A stretch of 64,000 bases of DNA from Clostridia bacterium (GCA_045577655.1 JAZNIU010000027.1:1528-65527), one strand, 5' to 3'; positions 1 to 13,518 are shown, numbered from the stretch's first letter. Translations and numbers: made by a program. Notes: a model not told the origin generated them from the letters alone.

Positions 1-543
1 AGGCCGGGCAAAAACTGCAAAATTTTCTATCTGTATAAATTCCGCACAATGACTGACGAAAAAGATGAAAATGGTAACTTGCTTCCTGATGATGTCCGAT
101 TGACAAAATTTGGCAGGTTCCTCAGAAAAACAAGTCTCGACGAACTCCCAGAAGCCATAAACATTTTAAAAGGGGATATGAGTGTTGTTGGTCCACGTCC
201 CCAGCTTGTACGGGATATGGTTTTCTTTGATGAAAATCAAATGAGGCGGCAAAGTGTTACTCCCGGTCTTACAGGTCTTGCGCAGATAAGCGGCAGAAAT
301 GGTATAACCTGGGAAGAAAAAATAGAGTTTGATTTAAAATACATAGAAAATATTACTTTTTTTGGTGATGTCAAGATTATTCTTCTGACTGTGTGGAAAG
401 CATTTGTAAAAACAGAAGGCATTTCCCAGGAGGGTATGGATACTGCCGAGGATTATGGCGACTGGCTGCTCAGTATGGGAAAGATTGATGAGACTGAATA
501 TAATGAAAAACAAACCGAAGCAAAAAATGTGTTAAGGATGTAG
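1..543 (+). CDS. Undecaprenyl-phosphate sugar phosphotransferase (bacterial sugar transferase family), C-terminal catalytic domain. The 5' end is truncated by the window edge.
   Basis: The reading frame is open from nt 1 and encodes ...KIFYLYKFRTM, the KFR(S/T)M motif of priming sugar transferases. Further motifs: DELPQ-like DELPEAINILKGDMSVVGPRP and PGLTGLAQ. The ORF track shows only the internal Met at 49. Confidence 0.85.
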   Translation, partial: RPGKNCKIFYLYKFRTMTDEKDENGNLLPDDVRLTKFGRFLRKTSLDELPEAINILKGDMSVVGPRPQLVRDMVFFDENQMRRQSVTPGLTGLAQISGRNGITWEEKIEFDLKYIENITFFGDVKIILLTVWKAFVKTEGISQEGMDTAEDYGDWLLSMGKIDETEYNEKQTEAKNVLRM

Positions 544-547
544 TGTT

Positions 548-1375
548 ATGGAAAAATTAAAATTCTCCGTTTCAATGTGTGTGTACGGCAAAGATAATCC
601 TCAGTGGTTTAAGGTTGCAGTAGACAGTGTTTTGAACCAAACCCGTCTTCCTAATGAGGTTGTTCTGATTGTAGACGGACCGGTCCCGGACGAGCTTGAT
701 TCTATTATCAAAAACTACGAGCAAATGGATATATTTAAGGTTATACGTCTTGAGACAAACCGTGGACACGGAGAGGCAAGGCGTATAGGTCTTGAAAATT
801 GCAACAACAATCTGGTTGCACTTATGGATGCAGATGATATAAGCTGTTCTGACAGATTTGAAAAACAACTTGAAATGTTTGAAAAAGATAACGAGCTTGC
901 AATCGTCGGCGGAAATATTACAGAGTTTATAGGTGACCCCGAAAATATTGTTGCACAACGTATCGTTCCATGTAATGATAAAGATATTAAAGAATATCTT
1001 AAAAAACGCTGCCCGATGAATCAGATGACAGTTATGTTTAAAAAAGATGGTGTTCAGTCGGTAGGAGGATATATTGACTGGTATTGCGATGAGGACTATT
1101 ATTTATGGATTAGGATGTGCCTTGCCGGACTAAAGTTTGCTAATTTGCCTGACATACTCGTTAATGTCAGAGTTGGAGCAGATATGTATCAGCGAAGAGG
1201 CGGGATAAAGTATTTTAAAAGTGAAGCAAAACTCCAGAGATTTATGCTTGATAAGAAAATTATTGGAACAGTTACATATTTGAGCAATGTTTTAAAGCGT
1301 GTTATTGTTCAGGTGATGCTTCCCAATAAACTGCGTGGATGGGTGTTTAAAAAATTGGCGAGAAAGTCGGTGTGA
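548..1375 (+). CDS. Glycosyltransferase family 2
   Basis: The N-terminus SVSMCVYGKDNP...VVLIVDGPVPDELD and the DAD motif (LMDADDIS) are typical of GT2/GT-A EPS transferases. It lies 4 nt after the upstream gene. Confidence 0.8.
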   Translation: MEKLKFSVSMCVYGKDNPQWFKVAVDSVLNQTRLPNEVVLIVDGPVPDELDSIIKNYEQMDIFKVIRLETNRGHGEARRIGLENCNNNLVALMDADDISCSDRFEKQLEMFEKDNELAIVGGNITEFIGDPENIVAQRIVPCNDKDIKEYLKKRCPMNQMTVMFKKDGVQSVGGYIDWYCDEDYYLWIRMCLAGLKFANLPDILVNVRVGADMYQRRGGIKYFKSEAKLQRFMLDKKIIGTVTYLSNVLKRVIVQVMLPNKLRGWVFKKLARKSV

Positions 1376-2190
1376 TTATGACGGAACTTCAAAGTAGGCT
1401 GCTCTGCGTTTTAAAATGGTTTCATGAATTGTGTAAGAAAGAAAATTTAGTTTATTATGCACAGGGGGGAACAGTTTTAGGGGCCGTAAGGCATAAAGGA
1501 TTTATTCCTTGGGATGATGATATTGATGTTGGAATGCCAAGAAAGGATTATGAAAAGTTTATAAAATTATCAGAGAAGGTAAATAAACATTCACAGTTTA
1601 TCATTGAATTTTCCGGCAAAAAAAAGGATTTTGTATATCCGTATTGTAAGATTTACGATCGGACAACAACTTTAGTGGAAAATACAAGATACAAGACAAA
1701 AAGGGGAATTTATATTGATGTATTTCCTATTGATGGAATAGGAAATACACTAGAAGAAAGTATTAACAACTTCAAAAAAGTGGACAAGATGATTAATTTG
1801 CTTTGCACAAGAGTTTGTGCGATACGAAAAGAAAGAAGTTGGTATAAAAACATTGCGATATTATTATCACGATGTATCCCCGAAAGTATGTTTAGTACGT
1901 TGGATTTAATGAAGAAAATTGAAACCTTAAGTAAGCAAAAAGAATACGACAAGTATGATTTTGTAGCAAATCTATGTGGCAATTGGCATGAAAAAGAAAT
2001 AATGGATAAGAAATGGGTTGAAAAGCCTATTCTATGCAAGTTTGAAAATATGCAGATTTTTATCCCCGGAAATTACGATGCATATCTTACAAGAATGTAT
2101 GGCGATTATATGAAATTGCCGCCGATAGAAAAAAGATGTACGCATCATGATTTTTTGTATATTGATTTGAATAAGTCATTTATGAAATAG
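1372..2190 (+). CDS. LicD-family phosphotransferase (phosphocholine / glycerol-phosphate / ribitol-phosphate transferase family)
   Basis: Carries the LicD nucleotidyltransferase-fold motif YAQGGTVLGAVRHKGFIPWDDDIDVGMPRKDY. The ATGA start overlaps the upstream stop. Confidence 0.75.
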   Translation: MIMTELQSRLLCVLKWFHELCKKENLVYYAQGGTVLGAVRHKGFIPWDDDIDVGMPRKDYEKFIKLSEKVNKHSQFIIEFSGKKKDFVYPYCKIYDRTTTLVENTRYKTKRGIYIDVFPIDGIGNTLEESINNFKKVDKMINLLCTRVCAIRKERSWYKNIAILLSRCIPESMFSTLDLMKKIETLSKQKEYDKYDFVANLCGNWHEKEIMDKKWVEKPILCKFENMQIFIPGNYDAYLTRMYGDYMKLPPIEKRCTHHDFLYIDLNKSFMK

Positions 2191-2199
2191 GAGGTTTTT

Positions 2200-2601
2200 A
2201 TGAAAAGAGTAATAACTTACGGAACATATGATTTGCTGCATTACGGACATATACTTTTGTTGAAACGAGCTAAGGAATTGGGGGACTATTTGATTGTTTG
2301 TCTTTCTACAGACGAGTTTAATGAAAATATGAAGAATAAAAAAACGTATTTTTCTTATGAACATAGAAAAAAACTTCTTGAAGCAGTTCGCTATGTTGAT
2401 CTGGTTGTTCCTGAAGAAAATTGGGAACAAAAAATTGATGATGTCAGAAAATATGACTGCGACATTTTTGTTATGGGGGATGACTGGAAAGGAAAATTTG
2501 ATTTTTTGAAAGATTATTGTGAAGTGGTGTATCTGGAGCGAACACCGGAAATATCTACAACTAAAATAAAGCAGGACTTAAAAATAGAGAGGGAAAAATA
2601 A
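2200..2601 (+). CDS. tagD: Glycerol-3-phosphate cytidylyltransferase (CDP-glycerol synthase)
   Basis: 133 aa. ITYGTYDLLHYGHILLLKRAKELGDYLIVCLSTDEFN is the HxGH cytidylyltransferase signature, with TagD size and layout. Confidence 0.8.
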   Translation: MKRVITYGTYDLLHYGHILLLKRAKELGDYLIVCLSTDEFNENMKNKKTYFSYEHRKKLLEAVRYVDLVVPEENWEQKIDDVRKYDCDIFVMGDDWKGKFDFLKDYCEVVYLERTPEISTTKIKQDLKIEREK

Positions 2602-2602
2602 T

Positions 2603-3439
2603 ATGGCTGAAAAAAGGTCCTTTGAAATTTTGTGTGCAACGATGCACCAAAATGACTTTTCTAAGATAAAAGAAATGAATATTCACTCTGATGTGGTTTT
2701 TGCAAACCAGTGTGACACTACCTCTTATGATGAATGCGAATTTGAAGGTAAAAAAGCAAAAATGATTTCCACTCAGACAAGAGGAGTAGGTGTGAACCGT
2801 AACCTTGCACTTTTGTATGCAAGCGGAGATGTTTGTCTTTTTGCAGATGATGACGTTGTTTATAGCGACGATATGGAAGAAAAGGTGGTATCAGAATTTG
2901 AAGATCACCCCGATGCTGACATTATAATTTTTCATTTTGAATCCGACAGCAAGGATAGGGTTCCGAAGAAATACCCGAAAACAAAAAAATGCGGGAGATT
3001 TTCAAAAATGTCCTGGGGCGCCGTGAGGGTTGCATTCAGACTTGAAAAGGTTAGAAGGGCAAATCTCTGGTTTACCACACTTTTTGGCGGTGGATGCATT
3101 TTCCCGTCGGGAGAGGACAGTATGTGGCTTAATGATGCTAAAAAAAGCGGGCTTAATTTTTATGTTTCAAAAGAAACAATAGGAAAGGTTTCTTATGCAA
3201 CATCCACATGGTTTACAGGATATGATGAGAAAATGTTTTACGGAAAAGGTGCTTTTTATAAAGCAATACATCCAAAAACGTTATTATTGTGGATGATTTA
3301 TTTTTGCCTCAGGACGAGAAAATTATCCGGAATGTCGGACTTTAACAAGTTGAAATGGATGATTTACGGTATTGATGGCTACAAAAAAATGATGACTTAT
3401 AATGATTACTGCAGTTATCTAAAAGAAAAAAATGGATGA
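2603..3439 (+). CDS. Glycosyltransferase (GT-A fold, GT2-like)
   Basis: Has a DxD-type motif (LFADDDVVYSDD) in a ~280 aa protein inside a polysaccharide locus. There is a 1-nt gap to tagD. Family assignment is tentative. Confidence 0.5.
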   Translation: MAEKRSFEILCATMHQNDFSKIKEMNIHSDVVFANQCDTTSYDECEFEGKKAKMISTQTRGVGVNRNLALLYASGDVCLFADDDVVYSDDMEEKVVSEFEDHPDADIIIFHFESDSKDRVPKKYPKTKKCGRFSKMSWGAVRVAFRLEKVRRANLWFTTLFGGGCIFPSGEDSMWLNDAKKSGLNFYVSKETIGKVSYATSTWFTGYDEKMFYGKGAFYKAIHPKTLLLWMIYFCLRTRKLSGMSDFNKLKWMIYGIDGYKKMMTYNDYCSYLKEKNG

Positions 3440-3458: not shown

Positions 3459-4529
3459 ATGAAGTATTCGATTATTACCATTCATCATATTCATAACTTC
3501 GGGTCTGTTTTTCAGGCATATTCTCTTTACAAGTTTCTGTCACAAAAGGGGTATGATGCTGAAATTATTGATTATCAGCCGTCATACTACAAAACCGGCA
3601 GGAATAAATTAAAATCACTTGTCGGCAAGATGATAAATCTTAAAGATTATATAAAAAGAGAAAAAAAGTTTGCACGGTTTATAAAAAAAAATGACAGGCT
3701 GTCTTCTGAAAAGTTCACTGATTACAAGCAACTGTGCAAATATTATAACAAAAAAGAGAATGTTTTTATTGCAGGTGGAGACCAGCTCTGGAACAATTAT
3801 CATCCATGCGGAAATGATGAAGCATACAAACTTTTGTTTACCGACAGTAAAAGAAAAATTGCCTATGGAACAAGCATGGGCAGAGATAATTTTTCTGAGG
3901 ATGATCTGAAAAAACTGGCAGAACAAACGGCAGATTTTAAGCAAATTATGATTCGCGAAAAATCGACTGTTTCGATGCTTCAAAAACACACTAAGACCAC
4001 TGTTATGCATGTAATAGATCCTGTTGGCCTTATAGATATTAAAGAGTTTGAAAAGCTTGCCGTAAAGCCGGATATAAAAGAGCCTTATGCGGTTATGTAT
4101 CTGGCAGATTCGGGGGAACTCCTAGATGAAGCTGTGAAAATTCTTTCGGAAAAACTAAACCTTAAAGTTGTTCATATTTGTGGGTTCAGAAAAAAATGTG
4201 AGTGCGACTTTTTCCTTAAAGACTCGGGACCTGAAGAAATTTTAGGATATATTATGAATGCCGAGTTTGTTATTTCAGCCTCGTTTCATGCAACCATGTT
4301 TTCGATTTTGTTTAACAAGCCGTTCGCATCACTGCTTCCCGGAAGCAATACCAATGCGAGAATTGAAGATATTCTTCGATTGTGCGGGCTTGAGGACAGA
4401 ATTGTCAGGGATGAACAGTCACTCGAATGCATAACAAATCAAATTGACTGGGAACAGGTCAACGAAAAAATAGAAAAATTAAAAATTGAGTCGGCCAGTA
4501 AACTGACAGAGGCACTTAATAATATTTGA
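3459..4529 (+). CDS. Polysaccharide pyruvyl transferase (CsaB/WcaK-like)
   Basis: The N-terminus YSIITIHHIHNFGSVFQAYSLYKFL matches the PF04230-type start (hxNYGaxLQ). ~350 aa. Found in an EPS context. Confidence 0.75.
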   Translation: MKYSIITIHHIHNFGSVFQAYSLYKFLSQKGYDAEIIDYQPSYYKTGRNKLKSLVGKMINLKDYIKREKKFARFIKKNDRLSSEKFTDYKQLCKYYNKKENVFIAGGDQLWNNYHPCGNDEAYKLLFTDSKRKIAYGTSMGRDNFSEDDLKKLAEQTADFKQIMIREKSTVSMLQKHTKTTVMHVIDPVGLIDIKEFEKLAVKPDIKEPYAVMYLADSGELLDEAVKILSEKLNLKVVHICGFRKKCECDFFLKDSGPEEILGYIMNAEFVISASFHATMFSILFNKPFASLLPGSNTNARIEDILRLCGLEDRIVRDEQSLECITNQIDWEQVNEKIEKLKIESASKLTEALNNI

Positions 4530-4543
4530 AAAGAGAATGAACT

Positions 4544-5761
4544 ATGAATGTAATATATTTATCAAGCGGTTGTTCGAATGAAAAATTTGCTGAACTGCGG
4601 AACAAAGGTATCACAAAAAAGATGCCGCAGGCACAAAAATATCACCACCTTCTGATGGAGGGAATAGCGGAAAATATTGATGGTGAACTGGTGTCCATTT
4701 CGGCAATCCCTGTGAATCGACAGTGGACAAAACAGGTGTTGTTTCGCAGAGAAGAGGAAATTGTCGGTAAAATACGATATATTTATGACTCCTTTATCAA
4801 TTCTATGTTTTTAAGGCAGTATACTCGATATATTGGAGCATTAAAAAATATTAAAAAGCTTTGCAGTAAGAATAATGACTGGGTGATTATCTGTGACGTT
4901 TTGAATCAGTCTTTGGCTAATGCCGCCCGCAAGGCAGGTAAGAAATATCATATTCCTGTGATTGGTATTGTTACGGATGTGCCGGGACACTCTGCTGGGG
5001 CACGTATAAAAAACCAGCCTTTTATAATCAGAAAAATAGCCAAACTGTCATCAAAAATGGCACAGGCCAACCTGCATAAATACAATGCTTATTTGCTTCT
5101 TACTGAAGAAATGAACAAGGTTGTTAATGGCAAAAACAGACCATACATTGTACTTGAAGGTCAGTCGGATGTTAATATGTCTTGCAGGGAAAATAAAATA
5201 GAAAACAAGACAGACCCAAAGATTATTATGTATGCCGGCGGCATTCATACAGAATTTGGGATAAAACGGATGGTAAATGCATTTGTTTCTGGCGGGTTTG
5301 AAGGATGGCAACTACATATTTACGGCGATGGAAACTACCAGAATGAGTTGAAAGATTTAGCAGAAAAAAATGAACAGATAAAATACTTTGGGATAAGACC
5401 AAATAGTGAAATTGTTGAAAACCAGCTTAATGCAAGTTTGCTTGTTAACCCCAGACTTACCGACGCGGAGTATGTTAAATATTCATTCCCTTCCAAGACA
5501 ATGGAATGCATGGCTTCTGGAACCCCGCTTCTGACAACAAAGCTTCCGGGGATGCCCCCGGAATATTATGATTTTGTATATTTCTTTGAAGAAGAAACCG
5601 AGGAAGGTATGCTTAAGGCTTTCCGCAAGGTTCTGTCAGTTCCGGCAGAAGAAATGCATTCGTTTGGTATGAAAGCCAAAGAGTTTGTACTTACAGAAAA
5701 AAATAATATCTGCCAGGCTAAAAAATTGGTTGATTTTGCAGCTGGGTTGAGGGTGAATTAG
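4544..5761 (+). CDS. Glycosyltransferase family 1 (GT4, retaining)
   Basis: C-terminal GT-B motif EYVKYSFPSKTMECMASGTPLLTT (the E-x7-E region). ~400 aa. Confidence 0.8.
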   Translation: MNVIYLSSGCSNEKFAELRNKGITKKMPQAQKYHHLLMEGIAENIDGELVSISAIPVNRQWTKQVLFRREEEIVGKIRYIYDSFINSMFLRQYTRYIGALKNIKKLCSKNNDWVIICDVLNQSLANAARKAGKKYHIPVIGIVTDVPGHSAGARIKNQPFIIRKIAKLSSKMAQANLHKYNAYLLLTEEMNKVVNGKNRPYIVLEGQSDVNMSCRENKIENKTDPKIIMYAGGIHTEFGIKRMVNAFVSGGFEGWQLHIYGDGNYQNELKDLAEKNEQIKYFGIRPNSEIVENQLNASLLVNPRLTDAEYVKYSFPSKTMECMASGTPLLTTKLPGMPPEYYDFVYFFEEETEEGMLKAFRKVLSVPAEEMHSFGMKAKEFVLTEKNNICQAKKLVDFAAGLRVN

Positions 5762-5763
5762 AT

Positions 5764-6975
5764 ATGGCAAATGAAAAAAGTATTATACAAATAAATACTT
5801 TGGATTGCATGGGATGTGGTCTGTGTTCGGAGATTTGCCCAAAACGGTGCATATCAATGATTCCGGATGATGAAGGATTTCTTGCTCCAAAGATTGATGC
5901 AGAAATGTGTATTGATTGTGGGGTATGCCTTAAAAACTGCCCTGCAGCCAATGCGGCAGACAGTTTGTTTTTCGGCGAGCCTCGTAGTTATTTCTGCGGA
6001 ACTATAAAGGATGATGATATTCTGCTTAAAAGCTCATCCGGGGGTGTTTTTGGTGTTCTTGCGAAGCATATTCTTGGCAAAAAAGGCTATGTTTGTGGAT
6101 GTATTTATAATGATGATATGATGGCGGTTCACGCCGTTACCAATGACAACGCTGTTGTAGAGAAAATGTATGGATCCAAGTATGTGCAGAGTAGAAGTGA
6201 CGAGTGTTTTGCTGAAATAAAAGACAAGCTTGATTTGGGTGAGAAATTGCTTTTCACGGGTACTGCATGCCAGATTGCTGCTCTTCGCATATATCTTCGG
6301 AAAAAATATGACAATCTGATTTGTGTTGAGATTTTATGTCATGGAGTACCGAGCCCGATGTTTTTCCGAAAGTATGTGAAATATCTGGAGAAAAAACTGC
6401 ACGGAAGGATTGAAAGCGTTCAGTTTCGCAACAAGGAAAAGCATGGATGGGGAAGCGAACACAGAACCTGTGTGGTCTATAATAAGAACGGAAAACAGAA
6501 AAAATACAGACCAATATTACCTGCATATTTCAGTGCCTTTTTCTATGGCATAAATTTGAGAGAATCCTGTTACCTTTGCAAGTTTGCGAAACCTGACAGG
6601 ATAGCCGACCTTACCATAGGGGATTTTTGGGGCTCGTGGGAAAAATTCGGCAAAAGGTTTACAGAAGGTATTTCGGTTGTTGGCATAAACAGTGAAAAAG
6701 GGCAAGACCTTATTGGAGAAGTGAAAGAAGAGTTTTCTCTCTTTGAAATACTTGGGAAAAATGAAGCTGTGCGTTCAAACGACAATTTTGAACATCCTAT
6801 TAAACGTCCACCGGAACGCGATTGTTTTTATAATGGTTTTGAGAAAAAATACAAGGGCGCCTGGAAAAAAGCATATTTTACAAAAACCTACCGAAAGAAA
6901 ACATTAGCTTCAGTTTACGGGGCGCTGGTGCCTGCAAAATGGCGATATCTTAGACATAAGCTAAAGAAGAGATAA
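5764..6975 (+). CDS. Coenzyme F420 hydrogenase/dehydrogenase beta-subunit-like iron-sulfur protein of the kind found in polysaccharide loci
   Basis: Two N-terminal 4Fe-4S ferredoxin motifs (CMGCGLCSEICP and CIDCGVCLKNCP), followed by a ~300 aa FrhB/FdhB-like body. Members of this family are commonly paired with pyruvyl transferases. Confidence 0.65.
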   Translation: MANEKSIIQINTLDCMGCGLCSEICPKRCISMIPDDEGFLAPKIDAEMCIDCGVCLKNCPAANAADSLFFGEPRSYFCGTIKDDDILLKSSSGGVFGVLAKHILGKKGYVCGCIYNDDMMAVHAVTNDNAVVEKMYGSKYVQSRSDECFAEIKDKLDLGEKLLFTGTACQIAALRIYLRKKYDNLICVEILCHGVPSPMFFRKYVKYLEKKLHGRIESVQFRNKEKHGWGSEHRTCVVYNKNGKQKKYRPILPAYFSAFFYGINLRESCYLCKFAKPDRIADLTIGDFWGSWEKFGKRFTEGISVVGINSEKGQDLIGEVKEEFSLFEILGKNEAVRSNDNFEHPIKRPPERDCFYNGFEKKYKGAWKKAYFTKTYRKKTLASVYGALVPAKWRYLRHKLKKR

Positions 6976-6982
6976 AGAGAAT

Positions 6983-7528
6983 ATGACAAATTTAAATAAA
7001 CAAAGAAATAAAAAGATGATACTCGCAGCCATGTTTCTGGCTCTGGGAATGGCGCTTCCTTTTCTTACCTCCCAGGTCAAAGAAATAGGCGATTCGCTGC
7101 TTCCAATGCATCTTGCGGTTATGCTGTGCGGGATTATTTGCGGCAGCAGATACGGGCTTGTTGTTGGACTGCTTTTACCAGTTTTAAGAGGTTTTTGTTT
7201 TGGAATGCCAAGACTTTACCCTAATGCTATGTGGATGTCACCCGAACTTGCTGTTTATGGGTTTTCAGTTGGATTTTTTTATTCGGTTTTACCGAAAAAC
7301 AGAAAAACCTCCGTTTATATTTCACTTCTGGGAGCTATGCTGTGCGGCAGGATAATCTGGGGGATTTTAAAGGCGGTTATTCTCGGCGTTTCGGAAAAAC
7401 AGTTTACAATAGCTATGTTTGTTGCAGAGGGGTTTGTTGATGCAATCCCCGGCATTATACTGCAACTTTTGTTAATACCGCTCATTGTTTCGCTTGTGAA
7501 AAAGGAGAATGCAAATGGACAAAATTAA
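6983..7528 (+). CDS. Small polytopic membrane protein, possibly an ECF-transporter S (substrate-capture) component
   Basis: 181 aa with about 5-6 TM helices. LPMHLAVMLCGIICGSRYGLVVGLLLP resembles the H-x-P/A...G-[PS]-x-x-G loop of ECF S components. Only 7 nt after the upstream stop; overlaps the next gene. Confidence 0.35.
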   Translation: MTNLNKQRNKKMILAAMFLALGMALPFLTSQVKEIGDSLLPMHLAVMLCGIICGSRYGLVVGLLLPVLRGFCFGMPRLYPNAMWMSPELAVYGFSVGFFYSVLPKNRKTSVYISLLGAMLCGRIIWGILKAVILGVSEKQFTIAMFVAEGFVDAIPGIILQLLLIPLIVSLVKKENANGQN

Positions 7529-8798
7529 GATATCTTTTCCTTATGGGAAAGGAAAAATGGAATATGAGTTTAATAAAAAAGAACTTGAAGGTGTTTTAAC
7601 ATCCGGGATAGAAGAATATATTCCTGAGGCAGATGAGGAAACTCTTGTAAGAAGGGCGCTTGAAAACCCGGTTGGTTCCAACCGTTTGTGCGAGCTTGCT
7701 AAAGGGAAAAACAAGATTGTTATTATTGCAAGTGACCATACGCGACCCGTTCCCAGCAAGGTTATTATGCCTGCTATGCTTGAAGAAATAAGAAAAGGCA
7801 ACCCTGATGCCGACATAACAATTCTTATTGCAACAGGTTGTCACAGAGGAACTACTAAAGAAGAACTTATTTACAAGTTTGGGGAAGAAATTGTTAAGAA
7901 TGAAAATATCTACATTCACGACTGCGACGAAAGAGAAAAACTTGAAAATTTAGGAAAACTTCCGTCAGGTGGCGAATGCGAAATAAATTCTATAGCAACA
8001 CAAGCTGATTTGCTTGTTGCGGAAGGGTTTATTGAACCACATCTTTTTGCAGGATATTCGGGTGGCAGGAAAAGTGTTCTGCCGGGTATTGTAAGCCGTG
8101 AGACAGTGCTTGCGAACCATTGTGCAGAGTTTATTGACAGTGAAAATGCAAGAACGGGAGTTCTTGAAAACAATCCCGTTCACAAGGATATGCTCTGGGC
8201 AGCAAAGGCTGCCAAGCTTACATTTATTGTAAATGTTGTTTTAAACGGAGAAAAAAAGGTTATTTACGCTGTTGCGGGAGACCTTGAAAAAGCTCATAAA
8301 AAGGGAACCGACTTTTTATCAACTCTGTGCGGAGTAAAAGGGACCGGGGCAGATGTTGTAATTACATCAAACGGTGGTTATCCGCTTGACCAGAATGTCT
8401 ACCAGGCGGTAAAAGGGATGACGGCAGCAGAAGCGGCAGTTAAAGGGGGAGGCGTAATAATTATGCTTTCCGAAACTTCTGACGGGTCAGGAAGCGACCA
8501 TTTTTATAATCTTCTCTCGGAGAAAGAAGATGTCGGTGAAATGATGAAAACTCTTCTTTCCCAGAAAAGAACCGAAACGGTTCCGGACCAGTGGCAGGCG
8601 CAGATTCTTTTGAGAATTCTGATGAAATCAACTGTTATATATATTTCCGAAATGGAAGATGAATTGGTTGAAAAAATGCATATGATACCTGCCAAATCTA
8701 TTGAAGAGGCACTTATAAAGGCAAAAAGAATATTGAATAAAGATAGTATTAAAATTACAGCGATTCCGGACGGAATTTCGGTTGTTGTTAAAAAATGA
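7515..8798 (+). CDS. LarA-family nickel-pincer-nucleotide-dependent 2-hydroxyacid racemase/epimerase homologue (DUF2088)
   Basis: LarA-type motifs are present: IIASDHTRPVP, ATGCHRGTT, GYSGGRKS (the Lys equivalent to the NPN-tethering lysine) and a downstream catalytic-type His (ANHCAEF). The ORF track starts at 7509, but the ATG at 7515 has better RBS spacing. Confidence 0.8.
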   Translation: MDKIKISFPYGKGKMEYEFNKKELEGVLTSGIEEYIPEADEETLVRRALENPVGSNRLCELAKGKNKIVIIASDHTRPVPSKVIMPAMLEEIRKGNPDADITILIATGCHRGTTKEELIYKFGEEIVKNENIYIHDCDEREKLENLGKLPSGGECEINSIATQADLLVAEGFIEPHLFAGYSGGRKSVLPGIVSRETVLANHCAEFIDSENARTGVLENNPVHKDMLWAAKAAKLTFIVNVVLNGEKKVIYAVAGDLEKAHKKGTDFLSTLCGVKGTGADVVITSNGGYPLDQNVYQAVKGMTAAEAAVKGGGVIIMLSETSDGSGSDHFYNLLSEKEDVGEMMKTLLSQKRTETVPDQWQAQILLRILMKSTVIYISEMEDELVEKMHMIPAKSIEEALIKAKRILNKDSIKITAIPDGISVVVKK

Positions 8799-8808
8799 GG
8801 AGAAATAA

Positions 8809-9942
8809 ATGAATATTTTAGTTGCAATAGATTCCTTTAAAGGAAGCCTTACTTCTCTTGAAGCGGGGAATGCTGCAAGTGAAGGAATAAAAAGATGTTT
8901 TCCTGATGCTGATATAAAAATTTTGCCCATAGCAGACGGCGGCGAGGGAACTGTTCAGGCTCTTGCCTATGGTCTGGGCGGAGAAATACAAAAAGTTTCT
9001 GTTAAAAATCCTCTGGGTGAAGAAATTGTTGCAGAATATGGTATGGTTGGGAAAACTGCAATAATCGAAATGGCAGCTGCTGCAGGAATTATTCTGATTG
9101 ACAAAACGCAGCTTAACCCAATGGTGACAACCACTTACGGAGTGGGACAGATAATCAGGGACGCAATTTCAAAAGGTTGCAGAGAATTTATTATCGGCAT
9201 TGGCGGAAGTGCAACCAACGACGGCGGTGCAGGAATGCTTCAGGCGCTCGGCTATCAGCTCCTTGACAAAGACGGAAATGAAATTTCGCTTGGAGCAAAA
9301 GACATAGGCAAAATTGCTCAGATAAAAGATAACAAAGTAGTTCCGGAACTTTCTGAATGTGTGTTTAATATTGCGTGTGATGTTACAAATCCTTTGTGCG
9401 GAGAAAACGGTTGCAGTGCAATTTTCGGCCCGCAAAAAGGCGCAAAAAAAGAAGATATCAAGGTGATGGATGATTCACTTTATCATTTTGCAGAAGTAAC
9501 AAAACAAAAGTATAAAAATACTGATATGAATTTCCCCGGAGCGGGAGCTGCAGGTGGACTTGGATTTGCTTTTATGGCGTTTCTGAATGGCAAACTGCAG
9601 TCGGGTATCAATCTTATACTTGAAAAAATTGAGATTGAAAAATATATAAAAGAAGCTGACCTTGTTATTACGGGTGAAGGAAAAATTGACAGCCAGACAA
9701 TTATGGGGAAAGCCCCGACGGGAATTGCAAAGCTTGCAAAAAAATATGACAAAAAGGTTATAGGTTTTTGCGGATGCACAACAAGAGATGCGGGAATTTG
9801 CAATCGGCACGGAATTGATGCTTTTTTCCCGATTGTCAGGTCTGCCTGCACCATAGAAGAGGCGATGGACAGGGAAAATGCGGCAGCAAATATGGCAGAT
9901 TGTGTTGAACAGGCAATGCGCCTTTTTGCTTTTTCAAAATAA
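8809..9942 (+). CDS. Glycerate kinase (GlxK/GarK family)
   Basis: MNILVAIDSFKGSLTSLEAGNA...ILPIADGGEGTV is the canonical glycerate kinase N-terminus. 377 aa. RBS GGAGAAATAA precedes the start. Confidence 0.85.
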   Translation: MNILVAIDSFKGSLTSLEAGNAASEGIKRCFPDADIKILPIADGGEGTVQALAYGLGGEIQKVSVKNPLGEEIVAEYGMVGKTAIIEMAAAAGIILIDKTQLNPMVTTTYGVGQIIRDAISKGCREFIIGIGGSATNDGGAGMLQALGYQLLDKDGNEISLGAKDIGKIAQIKDNKVVPELSECVFNIACDVTNPLCGENGCSAIFGPQKGAKKEDIKVMDDSLYHFAEVTKQKYKNTDMNFPGAGAAGGLGFAFMAFLNGKLQSGINLILEKIEIEKYIKEADLVITGEGKIDSQTIMGKAPTGIAKLAKKYDKKVIGFCGCTTRDAGICNRHGIDAFFPIVRSACTIEEAMDRENAAANMADCVEQAMRLFAFSK

Positions 9943-9957
9943 AATCAAAAAAAACTA

Positions 9958-9986
9958 TTGAAATATGGTAAAAAATATTATATAAT
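9958..9986 (+). promoter_or_regulatory. Sigma-A type promoter (TTGAAA - 17 nt - TATAAT) for the TAXI-TRAP operon
   Basis: Consensus -35 at 9958-9963 and -10 at 9981-9986 with a 17-nt spacer. It lies inside the 5' extension of the 9958 ORF call, so the true CDS start is 10021. Confidence 0.6.
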
Positions 9987-10020
9987 AATATATTATACTA
10001 ATAAAATATGGAGGATTATC

Positions 10021-10980
10021 ATGAAAAGAATAGTAGCTATGCTTATGGTGCTTGTAATGGCACTCGCTGTTGCTTCCTGCGGAAGCACAACAGGAACAAA
10101 AATGACAATGGGTACCGGCGGTACAGCAGGTACATATTATGGTTACGGCGGCGTTCTCGGACAGTATATCAAAGACAAAGCCGGCATTGGTGTAACAGTT
10201 GTTTCAACTGATGGTTCAAAAGCTAATATCCAGGGTATTGAAGCTGGAAACTATCAGCTCGGAACAGTTCAGTCTGACGTTATGTCTTATGCTTGGGAAG
10301 GCACACGCTCTTTCACAGAAGAAGGCAAAACAACTTCTTTCCGTACAGTTGCAGGGCTTTATGCAGAAGCAGTTCAGCTTGTTACAATGGACCCGTCCAT
10401 CAAATCTGTTGCAGACCTTAAAGGTAAAGCGGTTTCCATCGGTGCTCCCGGATCCGGCGTTTATTTTAACGCAGTTGACGTGCTTACAGCAGCAGGTCTT
10501 ACAGAAAACGACATTAAAGCACAGTATCAGTCTTTCGCAGACAGTGCAGATGCTTTAAAGGATGGAAAAATTGACGCAGCATTTATCGTTGCAGGTCCTC
10601 CGACACCGGCAATTACAGAGCTTTGCACAACAAACAGTGCATACCTCGTTCCTATCGACGGTGCAATTGCTGAAAAACTTATGAGTGACTGTCCTTTCTA
10701 TTCACTCTACACAATTCCTGCAGGTACATATAACGGCCAGGCAGAAGATGTTGTTACAGTAACAGTTAAAGCAACTCTCATCGTAAGTGAATCTGCATCT
10801 GAAGAAGATGTTTACAAATTGACAGCAGCAATTTTTGATAACATTGATGCTATTTCTGCAGAAAATGCAAAAGGTAAAGAACTTAGCCTTGAAAATGCAA
10901 CTGAAGGTCTTACAATTCCTTTCCACGCAGGTGCTGCAAAATATTTCTCAGAAAAAGGTATTACAGTAGCAGTCGATTAA
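10021..10980 (+). CDS. TAXI-family TRAP transporter solute-binding lipoprotein
   Basis: Lipoprotein signal (LAVASCGS). MTMGTGGTAGTYYGYGGVLGQYI is the TAXI signature. RBS GGAGGATTATC ATG. Confidence 0.85.
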   Translation: MKRIVAMLMVLVMALAVASCGSTTGTKMTMGTGGTAGTYYGYGGVLGQYIKDKAGIGVTVVSTDGSKANIQGIEAGNYQLGTVQSDVMSYAWEGTRSFTEEGKTTSFRTVAGLYAEAVQLVTMDPSIKSVADLKGKAVSIGAPGSGVYFNAVDVLTAAGLTENDIKAQYQSFADSADALKDGKIDAAFIVAGPPTPAITELCTTNSAYLVPIDGAIAEKLMSDCPFYSLYTIPAGTYNGQAEDVVTVTVKATLIVSESASEEDVYKLTAAIFDNIDAISAENAKGKELSLENATEGLTIPFHAGAAKYFSEKGITVAVD

Positions 10981-10996
10981 TTTATTCGCATATTTG

Positions 10997-11030
10997 TGGC
11001 TGCGGCGAAAAGTTCGTCGCAGCCATTTTA
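10997..11030 (+). terminator. Inter-cistronic stem-loop plus T-tract between the TRAP binding-protein and permease genes (a partial terminator or attenuator)
   Basis: TGGCTGCGGCGA aaagt TCGTCGCAGCCA forms a 12-bp stem (one G-U pair), followed by TTTTAGT. Confidence 0.55.
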
Positions 11031-11057
11031 GTATAACAGAACCAAGGGGGAAAACGG

Positions 11058-13007
11058 ATGTTATTTGGGAAAAAAGCAGAAACTGAAAACAGACCGATGG
11101 ACTTACAAGAGGTTATGCAGAAATTTGACCGCGAGTCCAACACCAGAATCTGGGAAGGTAAGGCGAAAATTGCAGTTAACTTCATTCTGGCTTCTTTTTC
11201 ACTTTTCTGCCTGTATGTAACTCTTTTTGCAAGCTGGTTGGAGGAACTCAGACTTACAACCTTTGTTGCATTTATTGTTTTTATAGGTTACCTTATGTAT
11301 CCTGCTAAAAAGGGTATCCAGAAGGTAAACTATATGCCGTGGTATGATGTTCTTCTTATGCTGCTTGGCACAGGAGCATTTCTTTACTATTCGGCAAATG
11401 CTATTACAATCATTCAGCAGGGAAGTAATTTTGAATGGTACCAGGTTGTAATAGGTATTATCGGCATAATTTCACTTATAGAGGTTTGTCGCAGAAGCGT
11501 TGGGCTGCCCATTGTCATTGTGGCACTCTGCTTTGTGGCTTATGCACTTATCTGGGGGCTTTCAAATCCATCCCTCTGGAAAAAACTTAACTATTTAACA
11601 CACTATCTGTTCTATAGCAAAGAAGGCATACTCTCAACACCAATAAACGTTTGCTCAAAATTTATTGTTGTGTTTATAATATTCGGTGCATTTTTGGAAA
11701 GAACGGGCATAGCTGACTTCTTCATCAAAATTGCAAACACAATTGTCGGCGGTTTTTCAGGCGGACCTGCAAAAGTTGCGGTTGTAGCAAGTGCTCTTGA
11801 AGGCATGGTTTCCGGTTCTTCTGTTGCAAACACAGTTGGTTCCGGCTCGGTTACAATACCACTTATGAAGAAAACCGGATACAAACCAGAGTTTGCGGCA
11901 GCGGCAGAAGCATCTGCCTCAACCGGTGGACAGATTATGCCGCCGATTATGGGTGCGGCAGCTTTCCTTATGGCAGACTATATCGGAGTTCCGTACAGTA
12001 ACATTGTTGTAAGAGCGATTTTGCCGGCGGTACTATATTTTGCAGGCGTGTTCATTACAGTTCACCTGGAAGCAAAAAAAGAAGGCTTGCGCGGAATTCC
12101 TAAAGAAGACCGTCCAAAACTTGTGCCGCTTTTAAAACAGATTTATCTGCTCCTTCCGCTTGTTCTTCTTATTTACCTTGTAGGTACAAGCAAAAACTCA
12201 ATTCAGTATGCTGCAGCAATTTCAATAATTGCGGCTATAGTTGTAAGTTTGTTTAACAAAGGAAGCCGTATAACACCAAAACGTTTCTTTGAAGCACTTG
12301 CAGCAGGCGGCCAGGGTATGATTACCGTAGCTGCAGCCTGCGGTGTTGCAGGAATAATTGCAGGAACAATCACAATGACCGGTCTTGCAAACATAATGAT
12401 TAACGGAATAGTTGCTCTTGCAGGAAACCAGGTTATAATTGCTCTGGTGCTCACAATGCTTTGTTGCATAGTTCTTGGTATGGGTGTTCCGACAACTGCT
12501 AACTATTGTATTATGGCAGCTACCTGTGCTCCCATTTTAACCCGTATGGGTGTACCCACTATTGCTGCACACTTCTTTGTGTTTTACTTTGGTATAGTGG
12601 CAGACCTCACGCCACCCGTTGCCCTTGCGGCGTATGCTGGTGCGGCTATCGGTCAGGCAAACCCAATGAAAACAGCGTTCACAGCAACAAAGCTTGCAAT
12701 TGGCGCGTTTATTGTTCCGTATATGTTTGCGCTTAATCCGAAAATGTTGATGATAGATGCAACGGCGTTTGAAATTATTCAGATAAGCATAACTTCACTT
12801 ATAGGGATTTTTGCAGTTTCCGCATCACTTGAAGGCTATTTGCTGGACAAAATGTCTTGGTATCAGAGGTTGATTTCTCTTGCCGGAGGTCTTCTACTTA
12901 TTGATGCCGGACTTTATACTGATATTGGTGGAATAAGCCTTGTGGCGATAATACTCATTTTGCAGTTTTTCTCAGGCAGAAAGAGAAAACTTGCAGCAAA
13001 TATATAA
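11058..13007 (+). CDS. TRAP transporter fused permease (TAXI-type DctQ-DctM fusion)
   Basis: 649 aa polytopic protein. The N-terminus ...QKFDRESNTRIWEGKAKIAVNFILASFSLFCLY is characteristic of TAXI fused permeases. Confidence 0.9.
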   Translation: MLFGKKAETENRPMDLQEVMQKFDRESNTRIWEGKAKIAVNFILASFSLFCLYVTLFASWLEELRLTTFVAFIVFIGYLMYPAKKGIQKVNYMPWYDVLLMLLGTGAFLYYSANAITIIQQGSNFEWYQVVIGIIGIISLIEVCRRSVGLPIVIVALCFVAYALIWGLSNPSLWKKLNYLTHYLFYSKEGILSTPINVCSKFIVVFIIFGAFLERTGIADFFIKIANTIVGGFSGGPAKVAVVASALEGMVSGSSVANTVGSGSVTIPLMKKTGYKPEFAAAAEASASTGGQIMPPIMGAAAFLMADYIGVPYSNIVVRAILPAVLYFAGVFITVHLEAKKEGLRGIPKEDRPKLVPLLKQIYLLLPLVLLIYLVGTSKNSIQYAAAISIIAAIVVSLFNKGSRITPKRFFEALAAGGQGMITVAAACGVAGIIAGTITMTGLANIMINGIVALAGNQVIIALVLTMLCCIVLGMGVPTTANYCIMAATCAPILTRMGVPTIAAHFFVFYFGIVADLTPPVALAAYAGAAIGQANPMKTAFTATKLAIGAFIVPYMFALNPKMLMIDATAFEIIQISITSLIGIFAVSASLEGYLLDKMSWYQRLISLAGGLLLIDAGLYTDIGGISLVAIILILQFFSGRKRKLAANI

Positions 13008-13026
13008 ATAAATTTGAGGTGTTATT

Positions 13027-13518
13027 ATGAAAACAATTAAAGCTGTTAAGCTTACAAACGAAGAATTTGCTCCTTTTGGACAGTTCTACACAATGACAGA
13101 ACCCGATGGCTACGCTCTTTGCGGAGAAATACATAAATTTTTTCCGGACAGAGTTGTCGGCGACAGCAATCACAGAATAGGTTTTTCGCCCATTGTTGTA
13201 AAAAAACCGGAAAAAATGGTTATTACTCAGCAGGAATATCATACAACAACCTGGGAAATGATTCTTCCGCTTGATGATGATATGATACTTCACTGTGCAC
13301 CTGCATCTGCAGGAACACCTGTTCCCGATTATGTAAAGGCATTTATTGTTCCTAAAAACACTCTTGTAAAGATGAATGCGGCAATCTGGCATCTTGCACC
13401 GCTTCCGGCAAATAATGACAGCCTTACAGCTATGATTATCTTGCCTGAATGCACCTATGCAAATGACTGCACAGTTGTTGACCTTAAAGAAGAGGAACAG
13501 TTTGAAATTGTAAAATAA
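13027..13518 (+). CDS. Ureidoglycolate lyase (AllA)-like cupin protein
   Basis: 163 aa. The N-terminus IKAVKLTNEEFAPFGQF resembles the AllA start (L-x-PLT-x-EAF-x-x-[FY]G). Assigned from memory of the family and not verified. Confidence 0.35.
   Translation: MKTIKAVKLTNEEFAPFGQFYTMTEPDGYALCGEIHKFFPDRVVGDSNHRIGFSPIVVKKPEKMVITQQEYHTTTWEMILPLDDDMILHCAPASAGTPVPDYVKAFIVPKNTLVKMNAAIWHLAPLPANNDSLTAMIILPECTYANDCTVVDLKEEEQFEIVK

Follow-up and report, generated by a model that had tools for sequence, protein, structure and literature searches.

Lactyl ethers and the gene pairs described with them

Lactic-acid ethers are present in many O antigens, capsules, and exopolysaccharides, such as those of E. 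coli O58, O124, O146, O69, and O150, Shigella dysenteriae, Klebsiella K22 and K37, Proteus, and Providencia, and lactyl ethers also occur in rumen Butyrivibrio and some cyanobacteria. Muramic acid aside, no paper on the enzymes that make lactyl ethers was found in the literature searched. The reduction of an enolpyruvyl to a lactyl group is carried out by MurB, and also by the nitroreductase-like C-terminal domain of FbiB in F420 synthesis. Among proteins with the FrhB fold, the FrhB-family enzyme BciB is a ferredoxin-dependent 8-vinyl reductase that reduces a C=C bond, and HCAR (7-hydroxymethyl chlorophyll a reductase) reductively removes the hydroxyl from a hydroxymethyl group.

All characterised enzymes of the PS_pyruv_trans family (PF04230) form ketals (PMC6801904). 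The O antigen of E. coli O124 contains 4-O-lactyl-Glc, with pyruvate unlisted; O164 corresponds to O124 minus the lactyl group, and the loss is attributed to a frameshift in wfeP (PMC7685785). In Klebsiella, the K22 and K37 loci combine a pyruvyl transferase gene (wclZ) with a “nitroreductase” gene (HG127), and in K66 the gene paired with the pyruvyl transferase is named “coenzyme F420 hydrogenase”; the capsules of all three types are reported to be non-pyruvylated, and K22 carries 4-O-(1-carboxyethyl)-GlcA (PMC4616057, PMC3857182). In Salinivibrio, Man4Lac is found in place of the 4,6-pyruvyl-Man of related O-units (PMC8466920). The literature searched yielded no paper characterising the iron–sulfur partner of a pyruvyl transferase, in agreement with an earlier note on the DNA described here, which held that the role of this partner has never been shown biochemically.

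The glycan genes of the window

The window is a stretch of 64,000 nucleotides from a Clostridia bacterium (GCA_045577655.1 JAZNIU010000027.1:1528-65527). Its ORFs were assigned to gene families by Pfam profile search, and equivalog calls were taken from NCBIfam models. The visible glycan genes are as follows.

49..543, plus strand: Bac_transf, priming sugar-phosphate transferase, 3' part only (PF02397, E 1.2e-39, profile positions 63-178 only)
548..1375, plus strand: GT2 glycosyltransferase (PF00535, E 3.7e-24)
1372..2190, plus strand: LicD-family phosphotransferase (PF04991, E 7.1e-51)
2200..2601, plus strand: glycerol-3-phosphate cytidylyltransferase, TagD-like (TIGR01518 equivalog, 197.9 bits, cutoff 165.4; PF01467)
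2603..3439, plus strand: second GT2-like glycosyltransferase (PF00535, E 3.1e-10), conserved in related loci L001-L013
3459..4529, plus strand: PyrT, PS_pyruv_trans family, 356 aa (PF04230, E 5.6e-38, 131.9 bits, cutoff 25.3, residues 13-292)
4544..5761, plus strand: GT4 (Glycos_transf_1), 405 aa, between the PyrT and FrhB-like genes (PF00534, E 9.7e-16)
5764..6975, plus strand: predicted FrhB/FdhB-fold iron–sulfur flavoprotein, 403 aa (PF04432, E 5.6e-21, 75.4 bits, cutoff 23.3, residues 160-323)

The gene for the priming transferase extends past the left edge of the window and is the conserved head of the cassette in L001-L013, and the first GT2 has orthologues in L001-L010 and L013 (E 1e-117 to 4e-142). 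The LicD-family protein probably adds a CDP-activated alcohol phosphate. The earlier note had placed ORFs at 3459-4529 and 5764-6975, exactly where they sit, and had described them as bracketing a GT4 gene, which the Glycos_transf_1 assignment of 4544-5761 bears out. The pair had also been located inside the glycan operon; instead, the PyrT and FrhB-like genes close the visible run of glycan genes at its 3' end, and no Wzx or Wzy homologue was found downstream of the pair or anywhere else in the window. The pair is followed by Wzy, GT4s, and Wzx in related loci. A promoter and terminator scan gave counts no different from the shuffled-sequence level.

The FrhB-like protein

By its sequence and its modelled structure, the product of 5764-6975 has a true FrhB/FdhB fold, and two 4Fe-4S motifs are read from its translation.

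5806..5841, plus strand: first 4Fe-4S motif CMGCGLCSEICP, residues 15-26, with C15, C18, C21, and C25 invariant
5908..5943, plus strand: second 4Fe-4S motif CIDCGVCLKNCP, residues 49-60, with C49, C52, C55, and C59 invariant

Several Fer4 models also match the protein. Of the profiles suggested earlier for checking the pair, PF04230 and PF04432 score above their cutoffs, while PF04422 (FrhB_FdhB_N) reaches 21.5 bits, just below its cutoff of 22; the same profile lies above the cutoff in relatives, namely the second copy in L001 (29.5 bits) and the fusion protein of L016 (26.7 bits). Cys169, Cys192, Cys269, and Cys272 are invariant in an alignment of 49 homologues, are also aligned in the FrhB-family protein of E. 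coli O124, and would be the ligands of a core 4Fe-4S cluster. The AlphaFold2 model (pLDDT 85.8, pTM 0.88) is matched by Foldseek with probability 1.0 to 18 FrhB-family chains (E 3e-16 to 4e-10, TM about 0.4-0.58), including the F420-reducing Fwd/CODH subunits 8rja_E and 8riu_B, Fsr (7np8/7npa), HCAR (5dqr), FrhB (9r51_B/6qii_B/4ci0_C), and FdhB (7bkb_E). At this match probability the protein therefore does not fall into an unrelated ferredoxin family, an outcome named beforehand; PF04432, both quoted motifs, and the FrhB fold agree with its first description as an FrhB/FdhB-like 2x[4Fe-4S] protein.

Taken at their word, the Pfam and PGAP names would make the protein a subunit of a dehydrogenase or hydrogenase that really depends on F420, and its top structural matches are F420-reducing enzymes. 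Its identity to these enzymes is only 15-20%, however, no hydrogenase or dehydrogenase partner genes lie nearby, and in HCAR and BciB the same fold works with ferredoxin. F420 dependence, which had not been expected in this organism, is unlikely because the same kind of pair is also found in E. coli, which to our knowledge makes no F420; nor do we know of its synthesis in Clostridia, Bacteroidota, or the other hosts. A genuine F420 enzyme is thus highly improbable here.

PyrT belongs to a reductase-partnered subfamily

PyrT had been described as a pyruvyl transferase of the CsaB/WcaK type, and its PF04230 membership agrees with this, the likeness to ketal-forming enzymes aside: no close similarity to proven ketal-forming enzymes was found. 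A subfamily HMM made from FrhB-paired PyrTs, the PyrT of the window included, gives 257.6 bits to WfeP of E. coli O124 and 259.4 bits to a nitroreductase-adjacent PyrT of an E. coli plasmid; an unpaired capsule PyrT gets only 18 bits, and the ketal-forming WcaK is not matched. When the PyrT profile was run against PDB sequences, nothing significant was obtained, with Pvg1p at E 0.22 only, and phmmer of the window's PyrT against the PDB returned no match. WfeP itself aligns with the window's PyrT over the full length (374 columns) at 27% identity (E 3e-27). These comparisons assign PyrT to a WfeP-type, reductase-partnered subfamily of PS_pyruv_trans, and such a separate subfamily fits a product other than a ketal.

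Recurrence of the pair

Co-occurrence was sampled in 34 related loci, drawn from several phyla. A PyrT gene adjoins, is fused to, or lies near the FrhB-like gene in 31 of them, and the hosts of the paired loci include Clostridia, Bacteroidota, Myxococcota, Gastranaerophilales, and Acetivibrio; the pairing is likewise found on plasmids of Pseudobutyrivibrio and Desulfotalea. Four of the 34 loci encode PyrT–FrhB fusions, and PF04230–FrhB-like fusions, in both orders, account for 25 of the 150 best 50%-cluster representatives, some of the fusion proteins also containing GT domains. The order of the PyrT–GT4–FrhB trio is kept in L001-L012 (GT4 E 1e-172 to 8e-193). The pairing is not due to chance, and the earlier statement that it recurs in many polysaccharide loci holds in this co-occurrence check.

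The FrhB-like protein might instead serve another redox step of glycan synthesis or act as an electron carrier, with a normal pyruvate ketal as the final substituent; keto sugar reduction, or formation of the alcohol for the LicD/cytidylyltransferase branch, are possible variants. This would suit L001, where the cytidylyltransferase and LicD genes enclose a second FrhB-like gene that has no PyrT partner, and L013, which has lost PyrT and kept the FrhB-like gene. It would also suit the occurrence of subfamily members outside glycan loci: close relatives of the window's FrhB-like protein (P0374, 36% identity; L032/L034) stand in non-glycan contexts, and a protein search seeded with the Desulfotalea homologue, which returned no enterobacterial protein by name, also brought up non-glycan family members. 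However, the fusions are frequent, specific to PF04230, and found in both orders; known ketal systems work without such a partner, as with wcaK, whose neighbours are wzxC and wcaL; and the O124 glycan has no ketal despite its PF04230 gene. A separate redox role is accordingly quite unlikely.

The E. coli O124/O164 cluster

The O124 cluster was located by a distant blastn search with K-12 glf, followed by comparison of nine O-antigen regions; the other eight (O96, an O9-linked capsule locus, and others) are not relevant. The cluster shared by O124 and O164 has the order wzx, FrhB-family gene, PF04230 gene, and GTs. When the O124 pair was itself used as the query of a distant blastn search, no further chromosomal serogroup was matched. 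Among six E. coli genomes containing the cluster, three show a 1-nt deletion (a single T) in the PF04230 gene, and the FrhB gene is identical. The genetic support for lactylation in E. coli covers the PyrT gene only, and not the FrhB-family gene.

The E. coli FrhB-family protein shares 22% identity with that of the window (E 2e-6), has no Fer4 domain, and scores 43-46 bits, below non-glycan members, with an HMM of PyrT-adjacent FrhB-like proteins. By these measures, the O124 reductase is placed in a distant FrhB branch and is not orthologous to the window protein. Read as an analogy, the O124 comparison suggests a lactyl ether rather than a pyruvate ketal for the window.

LarA and the genes beyond the pair

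Two further genes follow the pair.

6983-7528: ECF S-component gene, between the FrhB-like gene and LarA
7509-8798, same strand as the pair: LarA (NCBIfam equivalog for nickel-dependent lactate racemase, 618.8 bits, cutoff 460)

LarA, described earlier as adjacent to the pair, is separated from it by the ECF S-component gene. It could act with the pair by setting the lactyl configuration, or by providing the D- or L-lactate that would be attached directly, and it lies on the same strand, with a gap of only 8 nt separating 6975 from the following gene and nothing resembling a terminator at that junction. Against such a role, LarA passes the equivalog model for lactate racemase; moreover, no match to LarA, ECF-S, or glycerate kinase was found in any of the 34 related loci, and none of the three was found in the E. 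coli O124/O164 cluster. The LarA mechanism requires a free 2-hydroxyl, which a lactyl ether does not have. A part for LarA in the modification has very little probability, and the functional link proposed earlier fails on its absence from the related loci and the E. coli cluster and on its racemase assignment. Together with the ECF-S gene, a glycerate kinase, and a TAXI-TRAP transporter, LarA seems to make up a module for taking up and using hydroxy acids, and the genes past 6975 would form a module separate from the glycan cassette.

A proposed route to a lactyl ether

We cautiously favour the view that PyrT and the FrhB-like protein form a two-enzyme module that would place a lactyl (1-carboxyethyl) ether, and not a pyruvate ketal, on one glycan sugar, the reductase being fed by ferredoxin and not by F420. 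In the first step, the PF04230 enzyme would join the three-carbon acid from phosphoenolpyruvate to a sugar hydroxyl, most likely giving an enolpyruvyl ether. In the second, electrons from ferredoxin or flavodoxin would pass through the two N-terminal 4Fe-4S clusters and the core cluster to the flavin of the FrhB-fold protein, which would reduce the C=C bond to yield the lactyl ether. The whole would amount to MurA/MurB chemistry performed by unrelated protein families, presumably as a cytoplasmic reaction whose acceptor is a nucleotide sugar or a lipid-linked repeat unit, and the GT4 encoded between the two genes probably places the modified sugar. The lactyl-ether idea of the earlier note thus gains comparative support from O124/O164 and K22/K37, and loses its tie to LarA.

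Alternatively, in line with the option put first in the earlier note, PyrT may make a cyclic pyruvate ketal that the FrhB-like protein opens reductively, cleaving one C–O bond, to leave a lactyl ether. Ketal formation by all characterised PF04230 enzymes, the replacement of 4,6-pyruvyl-Man by Man4Lac in Salinivibrio, and the reductive hydroxyl removal by the structural relative HCAR are in its favour, and the co-occurrence and O124 evidence fit it equally well. However, enol ether reduction has two precedents, in MurB and FbiB, whereas no biological case of a ketal being cleaved reductively is known to us, and the profile of reductase-partnered PyrTs misses WcaK and barely matches Pvg1p. Ketal opening is therefore considered unlikely.

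Returning to the enolpyruvyl route, it may also represent, as we propose more tentatively, a widespread path to glycan lactyl ethers that is not homologous to MurA/MurB, in which a PF04230 subfamily acts as enolpyruvyl transferase and an FrhB-type protein, replaced by a nitroreductase fold in some lineages, acts as a ferredoxin-fed ene-reductase. The suggested two-gene signature would predict a lactyl substituent from sequence, would account for “pyruvyl transferase” loci with non-pyruvylated glycans, and would mean that a very large bacterial FrhB-like group (16,518 cluster representatives at E<=0.001) has a function independent of F420. If this is true, thousands of “F420 hydrogenase beta” genes in glycan loci of gut Clostridia and Bacteroidota mark lactylated surface polymers, and about one in six representatives is a fused bifunctional enzyme. 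E. coli O124, whose glycan structure is known and of which a variant with a natural PyrT frameshift is available, offers a direct testbed.

Comparison with known systems

WcaK, CsaB, Pvg1p, GumL, and ExoV resemble the window's PyrT in belonging to PF04230 and in the expected PEP donor, but differ from it in having no reductase partner and in forming cyclic ketals. The likeness to MurA/MurB, the UDP-GlcNAc enolpyruvyl transferase and reductase, lies only in the proposed chemistry, the formation of an enolpyruvyl ether from PEP on a sugar hydroxyl and its flavin-dependent reduction: neither an EPSP-synthase-like nor a MurB-type FAD-binding Pfam domain was found in PyrT or the FrhB-like protein, which have no homology to MurA/MurB, and the reductant is NADPH for MurB versus, probably, ferredoxin via the FeS clusters for the window protein. 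HCAR and BciB share the FrhB fold with the window protein and, as is proposed for it, use FeS clusters and a flavin to act on an organic substrate independently of F420, and HCAR is matched by the model at E 2.6e-12 with about 18% identity; their substrates, in contrast, are tetrapyrroles, neither has a PF04230 partner, and the window protein has an additional N-terminal 2x[4Fe-4S] domain, as in Fsr and FpoF.

Klebsiella K22 and K37 likewise combine a PF04230-type gene with a flavoreductase partner, although their reductase, unlike that of the window, has a nitroreductase fold and no FeS clusters. K66 is not used as evidence for lactylation, because a lactyl-rhamnose is improbable there; its sugar table has mannose genes and no rhamnose. 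In E. coli O124/O164 (Shigella dysenteriae type 3), a PF04230 gene of the same subfamily as the window's PyrT stands beside an FrhB/FdhB-family gene in a Wzx/Wzy glycan cluster. The O124 pair differs in its reversed gene order and direct adjacency, with no GT between the genes where the window has the GT4, and in belonging to the O antigen of a Gram-negative host. The O124 glycan carries a lactyl ether without a pyruvate ketal, and the lactyl group is lost together with the PF04230 reading frame.

Gene Organization of the Glycan Cassette

The pyruvyl transferase of the window (PyrT; PF04230) and its FrhB-like partner form an ordinary member of a widespread putative PyrT/FrhB-like module. In the open reading frame map, the genes between 49 and 9942 are arranged in tandem on the + strand, and the assignments come from Pfam and NCBIfam models.

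Genes assigned around the PyrT/FrhB-like pair (window coordinates)
49-543, + strand: priming sugar-phosphate transferase, truncated by the window edge
548-1375, + strand: GT2
1372-2190, + strand: LicD-family phosphotransferase
2200-2601, + strand: glycerol-3-phosphate cytidylyltransferase (TIGR01518, above cutoff)
2603-3439, + strand: GT2-like protein
3459-4529, + strand: PyrT, PS_pyruv_trans (131.9 bits)
4544-5761, + strand: GT4
5764-6975, + strand: FrhB-like protein, two 4Fe-4S motifs N-terminal to FrhB_FdhB domains
6983-7528, + strand: ECF transporter S component
7509-8798, + strand: LarA
8809-9942, + strand: glycerate kinase
9958-13007: TAXI-TRAP transporter

Translation bears out the gene pair and the two cysteine motifs quoted in the earlier note, which occupy residues 15-26 and 49-60 of the FrhB-like protein. 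The pair had been placed inside a glycan operon; it does lie in glycan genes, but at the end of the visible ones rather than in mid-cluster. The predicted product of the cassette, given its cytidylyltransferase and LicD genes, is a four-sugar unit bearing glycerol phosphate and a lactyl ether. A perfect inverted repeat of 8 bp, rich in G+C (TTCCGGGG ATGC CCCCGGAA), lies at 5544-5563 within the GT4 coding sequence; both strands give a terminator-like call there, which is probably incidental.

Family and Fold of the FrhB-like Protein

The iron–sulfur protein is truly FrhB-like, as first proposed, with its C-terminal Pfam domain, an AlphaFold2 model, and Foldseek all in agreement. The C-terminal domain scores well over threshold, and the N-terminal domain falls slightly under it (21.5 versus 22). 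The AlphaFold2 model, built from 49 homologues, is confident (pLDDT 85.8, pTM 0.88), and its Foldseek matches in the PDB with significant E values are FrhB-family chains only, at 15-20% identity: the F420-reducing subunits of Fwd and CODH from Ca. Ethanoperedens, the Fsr sulfite reductase (N-terminal half), HCAR of plants, FdhB, and FrhB itself. Eight cysteines in the ferredoxin-like domain are invariant among homologues, as are C169, C192, C269, and C272 in the core. The family is very large: 16,518 cluster representatives match at E ≤ 0.001, of which 7,780 reach E ≤ 1e-30.

Recurrence of the Pair across Genomes

The expected recurrence of the pairing was confirmed in a scan with one genome per species, in which PyrT is adjacent to, fused with, or near the FrhB-like gene in 31 of 34 related loci. 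The 13 closest loci (60-66% identity), from gut and rumen Clostridia, keep the entire cassette from the priming transferase through the FrhB-like gene, and all except one of them keep the PyrT-GT4-FrhB order (12/13). At the distant loci (33-41% identity), found in Ruminococcus, Christensenellaceae, Prevotella, Paludibacteraceae, Oribacterium, Myxococcales, Gastranaerophilales, and Acetivibrio, the immediate neighbour is nearly always a PyrT gene. The same association occurs on annotated plasmids of Pseudobutyrivibrio xylanivorans and Desulfotalea. PyrT and the FrhB-like protein are a single polypeptide in four of the 34 loci (L016, L027, L029, and L030), and among the 150 best 50%-identity cluster representatives, 28 are at least 463 residues long, 25 of them PF04230-FrhB-like fusions; the FrhB-like part may precede or follow PF04230, and GT domains are also present in some of the 28. 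Because the two proteins are fused in both orders across many lineages, there is strong evidence that they act on the same substrate.

The three loci without a nearby PyrT are L013, L032, and L034 (the last two are described below), and other loci vary in composition. At L013 (7872-11107), the PyrT gene is absent from an otherwise intact cassette that keeps the GT4 and FrhB-like genes. In L001, an additional FrhB-like gene (4731-5918), which encodes two Fer4 motifs and lacks its own PyrT, lies between the cytidylyltransferase and LicD genes; at this position, L002-L007 encode a protein of ~277 aa without a Pfam match. On the P. xylanivorans plasmid pNP95 (L035), a radical SAM/SPASM protein (6723-7895) is encoded directly upstream of a split PyrT and FrhB-like pair, and this plasmid locus contains one further gene of each kind, PyrT and FrhB-like.

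The Neighbouring LarA Block

LarA scores 618.8 bits against the NCBIfam equivalog model for nickel-dependent lactate racemase, above its cutoff of 460. The earlier note had called it adjacent to the pair and proposed a link to it; it is in fact one gene further off, behind the ECF S component, and no LarA lies nearby in any of the 34 related loci or in the E. coli cluster described below. The ECF S-component and glycerate kinase genes are likewise absent near the pair from these loci and that cluster. In the relatives, Wzy, GT4s, and Wzx come after the FrhB-like gene, where the window instead has the transporter/LarA/kinase group. The gap between the two blocks is 8 nt, and the promoter and terminator scan gave no terminator-like site at their junction; therefore, read-through is possible. 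Nothing points to a functional link between the LarA block and the pair. In the region 6983-13518, the ECF S-component gene overlaps the LarA start, the glycerate kinase and TAXI-TRAP transporter follow, and a ureidoglycolate-lyase-like/DUF4867 protein ends the group, which looks like a separate module for hydroxy-acid uptake and conversion.

Lactyl Ethers in E. coli and Klebsiella

A survey of Klebsiella capsules lists four types lacking pyruvate despite a pyruvyl transferase gene, and three of the four have a redox gene in the same locus, annotated as ‘nitroreductase’ in K22 and K37 and as ‘coenzyme F420 hydrogenase’ in K66 (PMC4616057). The lactyl ether 4-O-[(S)-1-carboxyethyl]-glucuronic acid is documented in the K22 capsule, and an acetyl group is all that sets K37 apart from K22 (PMC3857182). 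Among E. coli O antigens, lactyl groups are found in O58, O124, O146, O69, and O150, and pyruvate in O112ac, O149, and O156 only; the sole difference between O124 and O164 is glucolactilic acid versus glucose, caused by a frameshift in wfeP (2019 review, PMC7685785). In an exopolysaccharide cluster of Zunongwangia, ‘WfeP’ adjoins a ‘4Fe-4S ferredoxin’ gene (PMC4332637).

The O124/O164 cluster was located in six complete E. coli genomes through a distant search with K-12 glf and annotated regions. In strain WEC (NZ_CP114592.1), the gene order is galF, wzx (O124/O164 family), an FrhB-family gene (WP_000236767.1), a PyrT gene (WP_000861297.1), GT2, GT32, wzy (O124/O164 family), GT2, glf, GT2, and gnd. 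The pair is annotated as ‘Coenzyme F420 hydrogenase/dehydrogenase beta subunit C-terminal domain’ and ‘polysaccharide pyruvyl transferase family protein’, and Pfam confirms both families. The PyrT gene is annotated as two pieces in three of the six genomes (TUM18780, L050 2980-4115; TUM18530; and DETEC-C31) and is intact in WEC, RMDEC465, and VL7S7. DNA alignment reveals that the split gene lacks one T at nucleotide 394, shortening a T7 run to T6, and that the FrhB-family gene is identical. As this deletion matches the published wfeP frameshift, we infer that wfeP is the PF04230 gene; therefore, the FrhB-family and PyrT pair sits in a cluster with a lactyl-ether, ketal-free product. The split-PyrT strains are probably O164-type and the intact ones O124-type, and a broken PyrT reading frame is accompanied by a missing lactyl group.

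The small, IS-rich E. coli plasmid pBDSF8-3_3 (24.8 kb; L051 2739-10812) carries the remains of two adjacent glycan cassettes, one with a nitroreductase fragment, PyrT, and GT2, and the other with a flippase, an FrhB-like gene, PyrT, and a GT fragment; therefore, both kinds of reductase partner occur on one mobile element.

Relation of the E. coli Pair to the Window Pair

An alignment with WfeP covers the whole of the window PyrT at 27% identity and E 3e-27. When FrhB-paired PyrTs were used to build an HMM, WfeP scored 257.6 bits and the E. coli plasmid PyrT adjoining the nitroreductase fragment 259.4 bits. The same HMM gives only 18 bits to a short, unpaired PF04230 protein encoded without a reductase partner in E. 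coli Ec-U7 (L046 3015-3893), in a group-1-type capsule locus upstream of the O9 O-antigen locus, and does not detect WcaK; the yeast ketal enzyme Pvg1p reaches only E 0.22 with a profile of paired PyrTs. Thus, reductase-partnered PyrTs form a subfamily of their own, whichever reductase family adjoins, and by these similarities the lactyl-ether link of E. coli carries over to the window PyrT.

The carry-over to the window reductase is weaker. The E. coli O124/O164 reductase belongs to a distant FrhB branch, has 22% identity to the window protein, lacks the Fer4 domain, and scores 43-46 bits on an HMM of PyrT-adjacent FrhB-like proteins. Nearer relatives exist outside glycan loci. One is P0374 (L042 1575-3040; 36% identity; a cluster of 190 member sequences), whose gene follows an ORF of 78 aa among housekeeping genes (NAD synthase and lysine-pathway genes), with no PyrT within reach. 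In two Lachnospiraceae MAGs (L032 963-3374 and L034 9944-12338), the ferredoxin is split off as a separate gene (79 aa), and this gene and two FrhB-core genes in tandem all lie between carAB (carbamoyl-phosphate synthase) and rpsF (ribosomal protein S6), clearly a different setting and a non-glycan use of the same subfamily. Therefore, the role proposed for the window FrhB-like protein rests on neighbourhood, fusion, and chemical analogy, and orthology is no basis for it.

Proposed Chemistry and Comparison with Known Systems

The proposal builds on the observed families, fold, and conserved cysteines, on the tight, repeated PyrT/FrhB linkage, and on the demonstrated link of WfeP-type PyrT to a lactyl ether in E. 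coli. Known ketal pyruvyltransferases need no redox partner, which argues that the FrhB-like partner adds chemistry; E. coli wcaK, of colanic acid, is flanked by wzxC and wcaL. PyrT would use PEP and leave an enolpyruvyl ether, and the FrhB-like protein would draw electrons from ferredoxin or flavodoxin and relay them via its clusters to a flavin, which would reduce the double bond and thereby set the R or S configuration. F420 is an unlikely donor because the hosts of the pair, E. coli among them, are not known to be F420 producers. Reductive opening of a preformed ketal is a live rival to enol-ether reduction, and the co-occurrence and O124 evidence fits both alike. Enol-ether reduction has parallels in MurB and the nitroreductase-like domain of FbiB, which turn enolpyruvyl into lactyl groups; within the FrhB family, BciB uses ferredoxin to reduce a vinyl group, and HCAR demonstrates that the FrhB fold functions without F420.

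The wide annotation of the gene pair and the tie of wfeP to glucolactilic acid are known already. Searches of 8 million openly searchable papers yielded a single one, Pan et al. 2015, that names both F420 and a pyruvyl transferase, in a bare gene list. The new element is rated to be a functional variant of a reductase of the FrhB/HCAR/BciB kind, together with a new variant of PF04230 transferase.
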